The notes: generated from the sequence alone by a model not told the origin. 64,000 nucleotides of DNA from Luteimonas sp. (GCA_035250245.1 DATFFH010000019.1:14167-78166); one strand, 5' to 3'. Positions 24,214 to 31,637 are shown, counted from the first letter of the stretch. Program-made: numbers and translations.

Positions 24214-24299
24214 TGGTGCGAAAGGCGGGACTCGAACCCGCACGGGGGTTACCCGCTGGAACCTAAATCCAGTGCGTCTACCAATTCCGCCACTTTCGC
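24214..24299 (-). tRNA. tRNA-Leu(TAG)
   Basis: Reverse complement GCGAAAGTGGCGGAATTGG...GATTTAGGTT...TTCGAGTCCCGCCTTTCGCACCA. Confidence 0.95.
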
Positions 24300-25143: not shown

Positions 25144-26097
25144 GTGCGCGAGCTGTATCCCGAAATCGAGCCTTACGATCGGTTCCGCCTGAAGGTCGAC
25201 GGCCTTCACGATCTGCACGTGGAGCAATGCGGTCATCCCGACGGGCTGCCCGTCGTCTTCCTGCACGGCGGTCCGGGCGCGGGCGTGTCGCCCTATCACC
25301 GCCGCTTCTTCGATCCTCGCCGCTATCGCATCGTTTTGTTCGATCAGCGCGGCGCCGGCCAATCGACGCCGCATGCCGAACTGCGCGACAACACGACCTG
25401 GCACCTGGTCGCCGATATCGAAACGCTCCGCGAGCGGCTGGGGATCGATCGCTGGATCGTATTCGGCGGTTCCTGGGGTTCGACCCTCGCCCTGGCCTAT
25501 GCGCAAGCCCATCCGCAGCGCGCGCTCGCCTTGGTGTTGCGCGGCATCTTCCTGGGGCGGCCGCACGAAATCCGCTGGTTCAACGAACTCGACGGCTTCG
25601 CCCGCCACATTTTTCCCGAACGCTGGGCGCGCTATCTGGCGCATATTCCCGAGCAGGAACGCGGCGAAATGATCGAAGCCTATTGGCGCCGGCTCGACAG
25701 CGGCGATCCCGACGTGCGCCTGGCCGCGGCGCTGGCCTGGGGCAATTGGGAAGGCGGCAGCACCACGCTGATCCACGATCCCGACGAAGCCGGCACCCAG
25801 GAAGATCCACACGTCGCGATCAGCGTGGCGCGCGCCGAAGCCCATTATTTCCGCCACGGCGTATTCCTCGAGCCGGGACAACTGCTGCGCGACGTGGATC
25901 GCATCCGCCATCTGCCCGCGACGATCGTGCATGGCCGTTACGACATGATCTGCCCGGTCGACAACGCGTGGGAACTGGGCCAGGCCTGGCCGGAAGCGGA
26001 TCTGCGCATCGTCCTGGCCGGGCATAGCGCGGCGGATCCGGCGATCGTGGATGCGCTGGTGACGGCGACGGATGCGCTGGCCGGGCGATTCACTTGA
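25144..26097 (+). CDS. pip: Proline iminopeptidase
   Basis: FLHGGPG, FDQRGAG, GGSWGS, GRYDMICP, AGHS; GTG start. Confidence 0.94.
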   Translation: MRELYPEIEPYDRFRLKVDGLHDLHVEQCGHPDGLPVVFLHGGPGAGVSPYHRRFFDPRRYRIVLFDQRGAGQSTPHAELRDNTTWHLVADIETLRERLGIDRWIVFGGSWGSTLALAYAQAHPQRALALVLRGIFLGRPHEIRWFNELDGFARHIFPERWARYLAHIPEQERGEMIEAYWRRLDSGDPDVRLAAALAWGNWEGGSTTLIHDPDEAGTQEDPHVAISVARAEAHYFRHGVFLEPGQLLRDVDRIRHLPATIVHGRYDMICPVDNAWELGQAWPEADLRIVLAGHSAADPAIVDALVTATDALAGRFT

Positions 26098-26105
26098 ACC
26101 AAACG

Positions 26106-26133
26106 AAAAAAAGCGCCCGGGCCTCGGGCGCTT
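26106..26133 (-). terminator. Intrinsic terminator for arr
   Basis: Minus strand AAGCGCCCG-AGGCC-CGGGCGCTTTTTTT. Confidence 0.75.
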
Positions 26134-26178
26134 GGATTCGCTAGCCTCTTGGATTCGAGAATTATCGGATGGATGCAC

Positions 26179-26580
26179 TCACTCTTCGATCGCCTCAATG
26201 CCGAGTCGTTTGAGGTTCTCGAGATTGTCGTGCATTTCCTTCAGCTGCTCGGCCGAGTGCCCCTGCCAATCCGCCACCTCGCCGACCACGCGGAACGGCT
26301 CCCGCGAACGGTACGACTTCGTGGGATTCCCCGGAAATTTCTTGTCCGTCAGGTTCGGATCGTCTTCGATGGATCCTGTCGGCTCCACGATGTAGATCCT
26401 GCCGCGCCCCTCGCCGGCGGCCAGTTCGGCACCCCAGATCGCCGCCTCCAGCGTGGCGGAAAGGTAAACGAACTTCGCTTGCCTCCTCTGCCCGTAATTG
26501 GAGACGTAACCGGCTTCGATCAGGTCGCCCGCCTTCAGGTCGGCCTTGGTGCCGTGGTAGTAGGTTTGCGCATCGGTCAT
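26179..26580 (-). CDS. arr: NAD+:rifampin ADP-ribosyltransferase
   Basis: YHGTKADL..GDL, VYLSAT, WGAELA.G...RIY.VEPTG, EDDPNLTDKKFPGNPTKSYRS: Arr signature with His/Tyr/Asp. Confidence 0.94.
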   Translation of the reverse strand: MTDAQTYYHGTKADLKAGDLIEAGYVSNYGQRRQAKFVYLSATLEAAIWGAELAAGEGRGRIYIVEPTGSIEDDPNLTDKKFPGNPTKSYRSREPFRVVGEVADWQGHSAEQLKEMHDNLENLKRLGIEAIEE

Positions 26581-26637
26581 CGCATCGCTCCGGTAGCCCT
26601 GCCCTTTCGGCAGGCCGGCGATGCTGCATCATGCGCC

Positions 26638-26656
26638 GGGCCTTGCCGCAAGCCCC
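26638..26656 (-). promoter_or_regulatory. Rifamycin-associated element (RAE)-like 19-bp palindrome
   Basis: Minus strand GGGGCTTGCGGCAAGGCCC, 57 bp upstream of the arr ATG; identical to the RAE consensus as I recall it. Confidence 0.8.
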
Positions 26657-26671
26657 CGGGCGTTATATAAA
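26643..26671 (+). promoter_or_regulatory. Antisense sigma70-like promoter in the arr leader
   Basis: TTGCCG (26643-48) -17 nt- TATAAA (26666-71). Confidence 0.65.
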
Positions 26672-26680
26672 TTGGTTGTG

Positions 26681-26710
26681 GGAGGCGCTCGGCGCCTCCT
26701 TTTTTATTTT
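26681..26710 (+). terminator. Plus-strand intrinsic terminator just after the antisense promoter
   Basis: GGAGGCGC-TCG-GCGCCTCC followed by TTTTTTATTTT. Confidence 0.65.
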
Positions 26711-26734
26711 ATTGGCCGGCCCGCGGCACGGCAA
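26706..26734 (-). promoter_or_regulatory. Sense sigma70-like promoter of arr
   Basis: Minus strand TTGCCG (26734-29) -17 nt- TAAAAT (26711-06). Confidence 0.65.
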
Positions 26735-26760
26735 AGAAGCGGCCGATCCTCAAGAACCGG

Positions 26761-27270
26761 CTAATCCGGCAGATTCGAACGAATCAGATCTACGGTTGCG
26801 GTCATTTGCCCGGCAGACACTTGAACCCGCTGCCTGCGCTGCGCATCTCCGCCCGGATCGTGCGACGTACCCCTTTGACGTCCGGCGCCATCGAATGTGG
26901 CGAGTTGCGGAGGGCCTATCCCCCAATCGCTGCCCTTCTGCCGGGGCACGACGTGGAAATGGAAGTGCGGCGTTTCTTGCCCGCTATAGACCCCGTTGTT
27001 TTGGAACGCAAGTATTCCGAGAGGGTCATAAGTCTTGACGAGCGCCTCTGCGACTCTCTTCGCCGAAACCAGGATGGCCTCGCATTCTTGCCGGGAAAGA
27101 TCGAGCAGCGTCGCGACATGCCGGCGTGTGATGACGCAACACTGGCCGACCTCGAATTGCCAGGGATTGATCACGGTGAGCGTATGTTCGCCCTCCTCGA
27201 TGATCTTCCACTTTTCTTCGCGAGCCGCCACGCAAAGGTCGCACGGATCTCTAACGGGAAGTTCGATCAA
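26761..27270 (-). CDS. HIT-family nucleotide hydrolase
   Basis: CDLC, GQCCVITRRH, QNNG...GQETPHFHFHVVPR triad; TTG start after GAGGAG. Confidence 0.88.
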   Translation of the reverse strand: MIELPVRDPCDLCVAAREEKWKIIEEGEHTLTVINPWQFEVGQCCVITRRHVATLLDLSRQECEAILVSAKRVAEALVKTYDPLGILAFQNNGVYSGQETPHFHFHVVPRQKGSDWGIGPPQLATFDGAGRQRGTSHDPGGDAQRRQRVQVSAGQMTATVDLIRSNLPD

Positions 27271-27486: not shown

Positions 27487-27562
27487 TGGTGGGCCGTCAA
27501 GGATTCGAACCTTGGACCTATTGATTAAGAGTCAACTGCTCTACCAACTGAGCTAACGGCCC
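27487..27562 (-). tRNA. tRNA-Lys(CTT)
   Basis: Reverse complement GGGCCGTTAGCTCAG...GACTCTTAATC...TTCGAATCC...ACGGCCCACCA. Confidence 0.96.
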
Positions 27563-27583
27563 CGAACATTTATTGTAACAAAT

Positions 27584-27661
27584 TGGGGTGGCTGAGGGGA
27601 CTCGAACCCCCGACATCTGGAATCACAATCCAGTACTCTAACCAACTGAGCTACAGCCACC
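27584..27661 (-). tRNA. tRNA-His(GTG)
   Basis: Reverse complement (G)GTGGCTGTAGCTCAG...GATTGTGATTC...CAGCCACCCCA; G-1/C73 His identity. Confidence 0.96.
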
Positions 27662-27847: not shown

Positions 27848-28657
27848 ATGACCGCAACCAAGCACGCACCGATCGGCGCCCTGCTGCGCGAATGGCGGGC
27901 GATGCGGCGCATGAGCCAGATGGACTTGGCGCTGGAAGCGGGCATCTCCACGCGGCACCTGAGCTATATCGAAACCGGCAAAGCCAAGGCGAGCCGCGGA
28001 CTGGTCGCCGGACTCGCCGATGCCCTGGGCATGCCGCTGCGCGAACGCAACGCGCTGCTGCTGGCCGCGGGATTCGCGCCCCATTACTCCGAAACGCCGC
28101 TGGTGAAGCCCGAACTGGACCGCATGCGCGAAGCGATCGAGTTCATTCTGAAGCACCAGGAACCCTACCCCGCCTTCGTCATCAACCGGCGTTGGGAAGT
28201 GGTGCTGGCCAACGACGCGGCGGTCCGCATAAACCGCTTCCTGATGCAGGGCCGCCCGCTGCGGCATTCGAACATGCTGCACCAGGTCTTCGATCCGGAG
28301 GATTTCCGCCCCGTGATCGTGAACTGGCCGGAAGTCGCCGGCCGCTTCATCAGTCTGCTGCACGAGGAGATCGCGGCCGTGCCTTCCGATCCCGGACCTC
28401 GGCAACTGCTGAACGAAATCCTGGCCTATCCCGGCGTGCCGGAACATTGGCGCTATCGCGACCTGGAAAGCGAGGCGACGCCGATCCTCAACCTGGTTTT
28501 CCGCAGCGAACAGGGCGAAGTGCGTTTTTTCGAGACCATCACCACCTTCGCCGGCTCCAAGGACATCACCCTGGACGAATTGCGGATCGAGTGCTCTTTT
28601 CCGGTCGACGAGAGGACAGCCGAACTCTGCCGTCGCCTGCAAGCCGAAGAGGTTTGA
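27848..28657 (+). CDS. XRE-family HTH regulator with MmyB-like C-terminal domain
   Basis: SQMDLALEAGISTRHLSYIETG; RNALLLAAGFAP; EPYPAFVINRRW; ELRIE. Confidence 0.88.
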   Translation: MTATKHAPIGALLREWRAMRRMSQMDLALEAGISTRHLSYIETGKAKASRGLVAGLADALGMPLRERNALLLAAGFAPHYSETPLVKPELDRMREAIEFILKHQEPYPAFVINRRWEVVLANDAAVRINRFLMQGRPLRHSNMLHQVFDPEDFRPVIVNWPEVAGRFISLLHEEIAAVPSDPGPRQLLNEILAYPGVPEHWRYRDLESEATPILNLVFRSEQGEVRFFETITTFAGSKDITLDELRIECSFPVDERTAELCRRLQAEEV

Positions 28658-28669
28658 AACCGCGCGCCG

Positions 28670-29626
28670 TCAAGCCCAGAGCTTGCGCGCTTCCTCGACG
28701 ATGATCTCGGGATGTTCCTCGGGGAAGAACAGCCTGGCCTTCTCCACCAGGCGGACGCCGCGCGAACCGGGGAAGGTGCGATCCAGCCAATGCGCCGTTT
28801 CCACCGGGAACAGGTCGTCGTCCACGCCCCAGATCATCCGTACCGGCTTCTTGAAGGCGCGCAATTGCGGCCGCACCGACGGCAGCGGATTGGGGAACAT
28901 GTCCAGGCCGTACTCCTCGACCTGCTTGCGGCGTTTTTCGGGAGCGACCAGCGGGCGGAAGTAGGTTTCGATGAGCTCGTTCGTCAGCAGGCGCTCGGGA
29001 TCGTGGTAGGCGTTGCCGATCGCATCGCGCGAGCGCGCCCACGCCTTGTCCGCGAGGCTCTTGTCGAACCACAACCGGCCTTCGCCGCGGCGCGCTTTCT
29101 CCAGGAACGGCATCAGCTTCTCGGGCGGGCTGTTGGTGTCGACGTCGCCGTTGGTGAGCAGCATCGAACGGACCCGCTGCGGATGATGGGCAGCCATCAG
29201 CTGGGCGATGCCGGTGGAACTGTCGTTGGCGACGATATCGACTTCGGCGATCTTCAAATGGTCCAGCAGCGCGATCACCATCGTCGTCTGCGCTTCCGGC
29301 GAAAGATCGGCGTCCGCCGCGACATCGGTATAGCCCAGGCCCATCAGGTCGGGCGCAAGGCAGCGCCTTTCGCCGGCCAACGCAGCCATCGGCCCGCGCC
29401 ACTGGTAGCCGTTCAAGGGATAGCCATGCAGGAACAGCGCGACCGGCCCGCTGCCGCGCTCCACATAGGCGATCTTGCCTTGCGTGAGATCGGCGAAGCG
29501 CCGCGCGGCGTGGAATTGCGCGGGCGTCCAAACCGCCCCGCCCGCATCGGCGGCCCAAGCCATGCGCGTCGCCAATGAAACGGCCGCCGCCGCGGGGAAC
29601 AACAGGAGGAATTCGCGCCGGATCAT
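28670..29626 (-). CDS. Alpha/beta hydrolase with twin-arginine signal
   Basis: IRREFL Tat motif; FLHGYP, PDLMGLG, ANDSS nucleophile elbow, IWGVDD. Confidence 0.85.
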   Translation of the reverse strand: MIRREFLLLFPAAAAVSLATRMAWAADAGGAVWTPAQFHAARRFADLTQGKIAYVERGSGPVALFLHGYPLNGYQWRGPMAALAGERRCLAPDLMGLGYTDVAADADLSPEAQTTMVIALLDHLKIAEVDIVANDSSTGIAQLMAAHHPQRVRSMLLTNGDVDTNSPPEKLMPFLEKARRGEGRLWFDKSLADKAWARSRDAIGNAYHDPERLLTNELIETYFRPLVAPEKRRKQVEEYGLDMFPNPLPSVRPQLRAFKKPVRMIWGVDDDLFPVETAHWLDRTFPGSRGVRLVEKARLFFPEEHPEIIVEEARKLWA

Positions 29627-31451: not shown

Positions 31452-31528
31452 TGGCGCGCCCGACAGGACTCGAACCTGTAACCGCCGGCTTAGAAGGCCG
31501 GTGCTCTATCCGGTTGAGCTACGGGCGC
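31452..31528 (-). tRNA. tRNA-Arg(TCT)
   Basis: Reverse complement GCGCCCGTAGCTCAACCGG...CCTTCTAAGCC...CGGGCGCGCCA. Confidence 0.96.
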
Positions 31529-31560
31529 TCGCGGCGGATTGTCGCATCGCCGGGCCGGAA

Positions 31561-31637
31561 TGGTCGGGGTAGAGGGATTCGAACCCCCGACATCCTGCTC
31601 CCAAAGCAGGCGCGCTACCAGACTGCGCTATACCCCG
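31561..31637 (-). tRNA. tRNA-Pro(TGG)
   Basis: Reverse complement CGGGGTATAGCGCAG...CTTTGGGAG...TACCCCGACCA. Confidence 0.96.

Follow-up and report, generated by a model that had tools for sequence, protein, structure and literature searches.

The rifamycin-associated element (RAE) is a 19-bp near-palindrome of Actinobacteria, where it is said to have been described by Spanogiannopoulos and colleagues in 2014 and by Hurst-Hess and colleagues in 2022. An exact copy stands in front of arr, the gene for an NAD+--rifampin ADP-ribosyltransferase, on a stretch of 64,000 nucleotides (nt) of DNA from Luteimonas sp. (GCA_035250245.1 DATFFH010000019.1:14167-78166; this whole stretch is called the window below). 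Judged by its sequence, this is a true RAE promoter module with all of its parts, and what it shares with other RAE sites extends beyond the 19-mer to a module of about 130 nt. By the same comparisons, this module is the usual arr promoter region of the Lysobacterales. Within the literature searched, an RAE ahead of rifamycin-resistance genes outside Actinobacteria is unreported, and the homologies described here extend a known element to new phyla.

An intact arr gene behind an exact element

The arr open reading frame (ORF) of the window matches Pfam PF12120 (Arr-ms) with E=6.9e-51 and 171 bits (cut-off 25) and NCBIfam NF033144 (rifampin_ARR) with 234.7 bits (cut-off 130). Its product aligns over its full length with the solved Arr of Mycobacterium smegmatis (2HW2, E=4.9e-49) and retains the residues aligned to His19, Tyr49, and Asp84, which we take to be key Arr residues. 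Full-length profile matches above curated cut-offs and these retained residues together place the protein in the Arr family. The 19-mer upstream, GGGGCTTGCGGCAAGGCCC, lies at 26656-26638 on the minus strand, exactly 57 nt from the ATG and hence at -76..-58 of arr. It fits the near-palindromic consensus GGG[G/C]CTTGCGGCAAG[G/C]CCC, sits directly 5′ of a rifamycin-inactivation gene, and overlaps the predicted -35 region of the arr promoter, as judged by its register with a conserved CAnAAT hexamer and with a mapped transcription start site (TSS) of M. smegmatis, both described below. What differs is the host, a descriptive rather than functional trait of known RAEs, which here belongs to the Xanthomonadaceae and not to the Actinobacteria.

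A pattern search found the exact 19-mer once in the 64 kb. Even with up to three mismatches allowed, the site is the sole match apart from its own opposite-strand reading; 0.10 chance matches are expected at that stringency, and none of 100 shuffled sequences gave two. By base composition (the window is 65% G+C), 6e-6 exact copies are expected per window and 2e-8 within the 100 nt 5′ of arr. No Rfam family matches 26000-26900. The window carries tig-clpP-clpX-lon, and its ClpX clusters at 90% identity or more with those of Xanthomonas, Stenotrophomonas, Pseudoxanthomonas, and Luteimonas, while its Lon and Tig are singletons at 90% identity; the host is therefore a member of the Xanthomonadaceae/Lysobacteraceae without a close sequenced relative. 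DNA of the window was found in DNA metagenome runs only, and its source is a rhizosphere metagenome.

The same 19-mer is in print. Salamzade et al. (bioRxiv 10.1101/2025.08.06.668190) give four RAE query 19-mers, the first of which is that of the window exactly, in a search confined to Actinomycetota. The single guide RNA (sgRNA) table of Faulkner et al. (PMC7882622) contains TGGGGCTTGCGGCAAGGCC at -74..-56 of M. smegmatis arr, from which the identical 19-mer is derived at -73..-55, compared with -76..-58 in the window. An RAE scan of Actinobacteria and Firmicutes found none in Firmicutes (Surette et al., 2022). Full-text searching turned up neither an RAE reported from beyond the Actinobacteria nor an antisense promoter described within one, the 2014 description lying outside that search.

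A first-pass annotation, made from the DNA without database searches, had anticipated several of these points. Its coordinates for the 19-mer, the 57-bp gap, and an intact arr with its own ribosome-binding site and terminator are all right, and the consensus that it gave proved to be the very 19-mer printed by Salamzade et al. and present at M. smegmatis arr. It had held a 19/19 match to be very unlikely by chance, with which the expectations above agree; it had allowed that the motif might be common away from rifamycin genes, whereas the copy within the 64-kb window is the only one. Its gammaproteobacterial host is upheld by the cluster membership of ClpX, and its statement that no RAE reports were known from Xanthomonadaceae is in line with the full-text search.

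Homology beyond the 19-mer

Scanning metagenome contigs for GGGSCTTGCGGCAAGSCCC yielded 120 loci, which formed the RAE reference set for a profile. The genes 3′ of these elements make up the known RAE regulon: rox-type monooxygenases in about 45 cases, helR in 22, rgt in at least 11, arr in 11, and rph in 9. The HelR, Rph, and Arr representatives exceed NCBIfam cut-offs. The oriented contexts share a consensus that runs from a hairpin through CCactttCAa..TAtagCgcac.gG and the RAE to.GGtcgTGccGCA.AATCgccggCcg. Homology of the flanks to those of other RAE sites is a criterion of our own, outside the published definition of the element, and the window displays it clearly: its flanks alone score 32.7 bits against the RAE profile, with about 75 nt of flank matching, whereas 20,000 trials at random positions gave flank-only scores of -47 +/- 11, none of them above 4.0. 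For true RAE contexts, scored in the same way, the interquartile range is 25-62 bits. Because the flank-only score lies so far above the null, the whole promoter region of the window is homologous to the general RAE module.

At L120, a canonical upstream RAE flank is followed by an unrelated downstream flank and then by a 418-aa transposase-like ORF, which may represent an insertion that severed the module from its gene. At L051 (2399-2899) and L159, the canonical RAE is followed by a Thermoleophilia-type Arr whose N-terminal extension bears two CxxCxGxG motifs and is zinc-ribbon-like.

The module in Lysobacterales and other phyla

An RAE near arr was sought in 80 species-representative genomes, those whose Arr is most like that of the window. 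An RAE with at most one mismatch, at an equal distance to arr, is present in all five loci of the Lysobacterales type (L002, L003, L005, L006, and L009), which come from a Xanthomonadaceae metagenome-assembled genome (MAG), Tahibacter, Pseudoxanthomonas, and two Rhodanobacteraceae MAGs. These loci have in common a conserved block of about 170 nt, and in the clade as a whole, window included, the 19-mer is kept to within one mismatch at 6 of 6 loci while nearby spacer bases vary. Conservation among the Lysobacterales arr loci ends at the arr stop codon, and the flanking genes are unrelated. A second Lysobacterales Arr lineage, only 48% identical and represented by the Stenotrophomonas maltophilia type, Pseudoluteimonas, and Rhodanobacter, has the same RAE module. 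Further carriers, among them complete Lysobacterales genomes with the module at the same place, are given in Table 1.

Table 1. Carriers of the RAE module in Proteobacteria and Myxococcota
Locus	Source	Gene downstream	Element
L129	Stenotrophomonas (SpeE identical to S. indicatrix)	arr	RAE GGGCCTTGCCGCAAGGCCC
L209-212	S. maltophilia-type	arr	RAE GGGCCTTGCAGCAAGGCCC
L213	Pseudoluteimonas lycopersici CP041742	arr	RAE GGGGCTTGCGGCAAGGCTG
L214	Rhodanobacter sp. DHG33	arr	RAE-like GGGACTTGCGGCAATGCGC
L215	Cognatilysobacter terrigena	arr	core CTTGCGGCAAG only
L204	Dyella sp.	rox-like	RAE GGGCCTTGCCGTAAGGCCG
L203	Proteobacteria MAG	rox-like	RAE GGGGCTTGCGGCAAGCCCC
L206	Polyangium mundeleinium (Myxococcota)	rgt fragment, then rox-like	RAE GGGGCTTGCGGCAAGACCC
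L152	Bosea (four neighbours at least 90% identical to Bosea proteins)	rgt-like	RAE GGGGCTTGCGGCAAGCCCC

The core CTTGCnGnAA, which amounts to two overlapping -35-like hexamers, is invariant in 12 proteobacterial loci. Some latitude is evident beyond the invariant bases: the S. maltophilia type has another base at the centre, and the outer arms are degenerate in Rhodanobacter and Cognatilysobacter, such decay in some Lysobacterales having left the core and the two -10 boxes in place. Weaker RAE variants were seen 5′ of arr in three further genomes, namely a Rhizobium MAG, a Hyphomonadaceae MAG, and an Oculatellaceae cyanobacterium. Scores of the rox-like and rgt-like proteins fall below the NCBIfam equivalog cut-offs, and the substrates of these proteins are therefore presumptive; no helR or rph partner was seen among the proteobacterial examples. 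In P. mundeleinium (L206:1166-2964), the module is followed by an 80-aa rgt-like glycosyltransferase fragment and then by an intact rox-like monooxygenase, an arrangement that looks like a decayed two-gene RAE operon.

The module is by no means a constant companion of arr. About 70 of the 80 nearest Arr loci are without an RAE, comprising those of Bacteroidota, Firmicutes, Betaproteobacteria, most Alphaproteobacteria, and three Actinomycetota MAGs, and none precedes arr of Chitiniphilus purpureus, whose protein is 85% identical. Among plasmid records in PLSDB, 1,660 match the coding part of arr at 60-80% identity, mostly from Klebsiella, Escherichia, and Salmonella, and none matches the module. 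Since these plasmids match the coding part only, clinical arr cassettes appear to travel without the RAE control region. The top-scoring Arr homologues come from cyanobacteria (Leptolyngbya, Desertifilum) and are 215-233 aa long, with an N-terminal extension of about 95 aa before the Arr domain, and several of these extended genes sit on large cyanobacterial plasmids.

Origin and spread

The first-pass annotation had offered two accounts of an RAE in a gammaproteobacterium, namely that the control element was transferred together with arr or that it works across phyla. Taken as a recent transfer from mycobacteria-like donors, the former is unlikely on protein identity and was rejected: the Arr of the window is 59-64% identical to mycobacterial-type RAE-linked Arr, compared with 74-82% to Arr of many phyla with an RAE or none. 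Neighbour-joining trees of Arr are too poorly resolved to place the origin further. The latter account, at least in that the element persists across phyla, gains from the conservation of the RAE in many labelled non-actinobacterial genomes, and the RAE of the window is no oddity of one genome. The upstream half of the module, consisting of the hairpin and CCACCATCAATATCCTAGCAGGGA, is nearly identical between the arr locus of a Rhodanobacteraceae MAG (L009:2380-2445) and three rox-like loci (L203:3880-3942, L096, and L189), while the downstream halves differ; the near-identity of the upstream halves suggests that resistance genes of one lineage acquire copies of the module, or of half of it, from one another. 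In the window, tRNA genes (Leu, Lys, His, Arg, and Pro) at 24214-24299, 27487-27660, and 31452-31637 bracket a small pip-arr-HIT segment.

Anatomy of the promoter region

The RAE of the window holds two -35-like hexamers, TTGCGG in the sense and TTGCCG in the antisense direction, which overlap by 3 bp. A -10-like hexamer begins 12 nt from either edge of the element, and the two face away from each other (Table 2). The spacing from TTGCGG to the arr-facing CAGCAT is 19 nt, and that from TTGCCG to the outward hexamer is 19 nt for TAAATT or 17 nt for TATAAA. In this register, the RAE spans about -42..-24 of both predicted promoters. The arrangement recurs in the consensus of the 120 reference contexts, where the sense hexamer at +12..+17 past the RAE reads CAnAAT (A2 0.93, T6 0.94) and its antisense counterpart, 12-17 nt beyond the opposite edge, reads TAnnTT (A2 0.97, T6 0.90). 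An A in second and a T in sixth position are the hallmarks of -10 elements. The arr-facing -10 reads TAGAAT or TAGACT in the second Lysobacterales lineage. This anatomy suggests a back-to-back promoter pair, in which the outward transcript would be only about 30 nt long and would start on a terminator, while the arr transcript would begin about 34 nt 5′ of the ATG.

Table 2. Observed and predicted features of the arr locus in the window
Feature	Position	Strand	Basis
RAE GGGGCTTGCGGCAAGGCCC	26638..26656	-	sequence, pattern search, published query match
arr, NAD+--rifampin ADP-ribosyltransferase, 133 aa	26179..26580	-	family profiles, 2HW2 alignment
arr ATG	26580	-	sequence
Ribosome-binding site GGAG, 7 nt 5′ of ATG	26588..26591	-	sequence; retained in most aligned loci
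arr terminator, hairpin AAGCGCCCG-AGGCC-CGGGCGCTT and T-run	26101..26133	-	terminator scan
arr-facing -35-like TTGCGG	26651-26646	-	inside RAE
arr-facing -10-like CAGCAT, 11 nt past RAE	26626-26621	-	consensus register
Predicted arr start	about 26614 (26614 or 26615)	-	homology with M. smegmatis TSS
5′-terminal stem-loop CCUGCC-GAAAG-GGCAGG	26614-26598	-	sequence; pairs kept in Lysobacterales
Outward -10-like TAAATT (or TATAAA), in AT box TATAAATT at 26666..26673	26668-26673 (26666-26671)	+	consensus
Predicted outward start, first base of terminator hairpin	26680	+	homology
Antisense terminator, hairpin GGGAGGCGC-TCG-GCGCCTCCT, then TTTTTATTTT	hairpin 26680-26700, T-run to 26710	+	terminator scan

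Both starts predicted from the consensus coincide with published starts of M. smegmatis, in which arr (MSMEG_1221) starts at 1290581 and the RAE occupies 1290508-1290526. According to PMC7882622, which cites Shell et al. (2015), the arr TSS lies 31 bp before the GTG, a position 24 nt past the RAE and 7 nt past CACAAT. On the minus strand, the supplement of Martini et al. (2019) places a TSS at 1290484 in both data sets, which lies 24 nt outside the RAE and follows the antisense TATAGT by 7 nt; that supplement lists no plus-strand TSS for arr. Raw RNA reads at an M. smegmatis-like arr locus have a depth of 3-20, too shallow to place transcript ends. Because the RAE is transcribed from neither promoter, it presumably acts as DNA.

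The pairing within the element points the same way. At RAE positions 4 and 16, G/G occurs in 49 contexts, G/C in 54, and C/G in 15, and since G/G is about as frequent as pairing, the RAE is maintained as a double-stranded sequence and not as a hairpin. An RNA or DNA hairpin formed by the RAE was accordingly rejected, G/G being common and both mapped TSSs lying outside the element. A leader peptide from an ATG at 26632 was likewise rejected, as its out-of-frame ORF overlaps arr and the ATG is missing in L006.

Beyond the outward -10, a hairpin lies 23 nt from the RAE edge in 90 of 130 RAE contexts; the median folding energy of this region is -16.6 kcal/mol versus -13.3 in control segments (p = 7e-7), and the antisense RNA gives the better fold in 90 loci, the sense RNA in 32 (p = 8e-9), with G-U pairs doubled in the antisense form. 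A T-rich tail follows the hairpin in the antisense direction in 45 of 130 contexts and in the sense direction in 11 of 130, compared with 10 of 355 random segments. The two helices specified are 84% paired across the 12 proteobacterial loci, versus 36-52% in slid controls, and 7 of 14 helix pairs change on both sides. The 5′ stem-loop of the predicted arr transcript is preserved in the Lysobacterales via C-G, U-G, and U-A pairs; the arr terminator region, for its part, varies between loci. The predicted starts, 26614 (-) and 26680 (+), are each the first base of a hairpin, and both RNAs would therefore begin with a 5′-terminal stem-loop. The stems of the upstream hairpin, 23-50 nt 5′ of the RAE in the 120 contexts, almost always have AAGGAG-like and CTCCTT-like arms, which resemble Shine-Dalgarno and anti-Shine-Dalgarno sequences but may amount to nothing beyond a convenient G+C-rich stem.

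A proposed promoter switch or a dedicated factor

How such a module would sense rifamycins is a separate matter. The proposal favored here, that the RAE is a promoter switch intrinsic to RNA polymerase, stands about evenly poised between acceptance and doubt. It would work as follows. The arr-facing and outward promoters would share a -35 region and could not be occupied simultaneously; since that region is shared, the two should exclude each other. The outward promoter would be the stronger, with TATAAA at 17-nt spacing in the window, and the arr-facing promoter, with its 19-nt spacer and CAGCAT, would be poor and nearly silent without drug, such that the outward promoter would win in the drug-free state. 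Rifamycin would then block part of the RNA polymerase pool, the balance would move to the arr promoter, and Arr would be made. The outward arm looks like a decoy, because its terminator would abort the transcript at once.

The choice of polymerase as the sensor follows from what accompanies the module. No linked regulator gene was found at any locus compared, and the flanking genes differ everywhere; an MmyB-like gene at 27848-28657 was considered as a local regulator and rejected, being absent from all other arr loci. As the module occurs in at least four phyla without a linked regulator, RNA polymerase itself appears to be the most likely sensor. Regulator-free rifampicin sensing through the interplay of promoters has precedents in B. 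subtilis helD/pps (PMC12802891) and M. smegmatis rpoBC (PMC10719064). The MmyB-like helix-turn-helix regulator (27848-28657, +) adjoins a convergent alpha/beta hydrolase gene (28670-29626, -) and is unrelated to the arr module. In its fullest form, the proposal would make the RAE the shared -35 core of a regulator-free bidirectional switch that reads the state of RNA polymerase, with a decoy arm running into a terminator and the other arm driving a resistance gene; in Actinobacteria, Proteobacteria, and Myxococcota, the switch would have become joined to arr, rox, rgt, rph, and helR genes. The module of some 130 nt would work in any phylum, because only RNA polymerase would be needed. Stated with all of these parts, the reading is tentative and rather unlikely.

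Several observations weigh against a polymerase-intrinsic switch. One concerns a step that it leaves unexplained: a rifamycin-blocked polymerase held at the outward promoter would be expected to cover the arr promoter and not to free it. The near-invariance of all 19 RAE positions in Actinobacteria resembles the operator of a dimeric protein. A T-rich tail follows the hairpin in only about a third of contexts. The mapped starts come from a single organism, and Martini et al. (2019) assign the minus-strand TSS to the divergent neighbour MSMEG_1220. The helR gene of M. smegmatis is reported in a review to have a further sense promoter starting about 20 bp 5′ of the RAE (PMC10719064), which is not seen in the consensus of RAE contexts. 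Finally, expression data for the RAE are confined to Actinobacteria.

The strongest competitor is a dedicated rifamycin-responsive factor for which the RAE would be the operator, a dimer activating or de-repressing the arr-facing promoter. Such a factor would be encoded elsewhere in the genome, and Actinobacteria, Proteobacteria, and Myxococcota would all have to possess it, by conservation or by transfer. Favored by reviews (PMC10719064; PMC12802891), it draws on a 19-bp palindrome strongly conserved as double-stranded sequence, which is typical of dimeric operators, and on 19-nt spacers, generally known to be typical of activator-dependent (MerR-type) promoters; back-to-back geometry alone, moreover, leaves induction unexplained. 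Against it stand the lack of a linked regulator gene at any locus, with flanks that all differ, and the decay of the outer arms in some Lysobacterales while the core and both -10 boxes persist; in the literature searched, no dedicated RAE factor has been reported since 2014. On balance, a dedicated factor is a substantial possibility, though it falls short of being probable.

A second competitor concedes the homology and disputes the function: the proteobacterial module would be an inherited promoter that has lost its rifamycin response and drives arr constitutively or on other cues, the RAE being kept for its -35 region. The degenerate outer arms in Rhodanobacter and Cognatilysobacter and the altered centre base in the S. 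maltophilia type are what such decay would leave, induction data are confined to Actinobacteria, and many Gram-negative bacteria are poorly permeable to rifamycins (HelR preprint). Yet the 19-mer is held to within one mismatch in 6 of 6 loci of the window clade despite variable neighbouring spacer, the outward promoter and terminator are conserved though useless for plain arr expression, and the module stands 5′ of three rifamycin-enzyme families in Proteobacteria and Myxococcota. A relic promoter is, accordingly, improbable. As for a palindrome arisen by chance, a terminator belonging to the HIT gene upstream, some other repeated palindrome, or mis-assembled actinobacterial DNA, to which 65% G+C, the commonness of palindromes, and a metagenome assembly might lend color, these are effectively refuted by the 6e-6 expected matches and sole copy in 64 kb, the absence of a T-run after the RAE, the fit of the flanks to the RAE profile, the same module at the same place in labelled and in some cases complete Lysobacterales genomes, and the Xanthomonadaceae housekeeping genes on the contig.

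Whichever protein responds, the presence of the module in Gram-negative lineages and in a myxobacterium means that a drug sensor acting at the RAE must exist in several phyla. RAE sensing has been an open question since 2014, and in January 2026, its mechanism was still said to await elucidation, the RAE being listed as a separate, unexplained system (Sudzinova et al., PMC12802891). The wider distribution narrows the answer, the obvious shared candidate being RNA polymerase, the target of the drug, in keeping with a polymerase-intrinsic switch. It also makes the question testable in Gram-negative hosts, such as the S. maltophilia complex, Pseudoluteimonas lycopersici, and Rhodanobacter sp. DHG33. 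One prediction is that the intrinsic arr of the S. maltophilia complex is drug-inducible, which bears on how rifampicin combinations are judged from minimum inhibitory concentrations (MICs). Similarly, RAE-guided mining for rifamycin-resistance genes should reach beyond Actinobacteria.

Comparison with known systems

MerR-family promoters, as is well established, share with the RAE module a 19-nt spacer and a palindrome in the promoter core. The centre of a MerR operator, however, falls in the spacer; that of the RAE falls on the -35 region of two divergent promoters, and no MerR-type gene is linked to the module. The rpoBC tandem promoters of M. smegmatis, as presented in PMC10719064 (reporting Zhu et al., 2018), differ in their rifampicin sensitivity, such that sub-MIC drug raises expression. 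In that source, these promoters have the same orientation, lack a palindrome, and give about 2-fold induction, as opposed to 15- to 50-fold for the RAE.

Closer in logic is the helD/pps system of Bacillus subtilis, a polymerase-based rifampicin alarm built of dual convergent promoters (Sudzinova et al., NAR 2026, PMC12802891), and by analogy, the RAE module may work like it. In both cases, two opposed and unequal promoters with 19-nt spacers precede a resistance gene, and no dedicated regulator would be needed. The geometry differs. In B. subtilis, the promoters are convergent, with starts 39 bp apart and an antisense polymerase that crosses the sense promoter, whereas the predicted promoters of the window are divergent, with a common -35 region and some 66 bp between their starts, and the two systems have no sequence similarity. 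An alarm of the B. subtilis type is defined by convergent promoters with overlapping transcripts; the -10s of the RAE module face outwards, and the TSSs of M. smegmatis are divergent.

The closest relative is the actinobacterial RAE itself. The differences lie in the hosts, since modules of the window type occur in Gammaproteobacteria, Alphaproteobacteria, and Myxococcota and a cyanobacterium has a variant; in addition, the outer arms are relaxed in some Lysobacterales, and the outward terminator of the window is much stronger. The likenesses are an identical 19-mer at the same position before M. smegmatis arr, a -10 hexamer 11 nt downstream, the same flanking consensus, and the same downstream families (arr, rox-like, and rgt-like).

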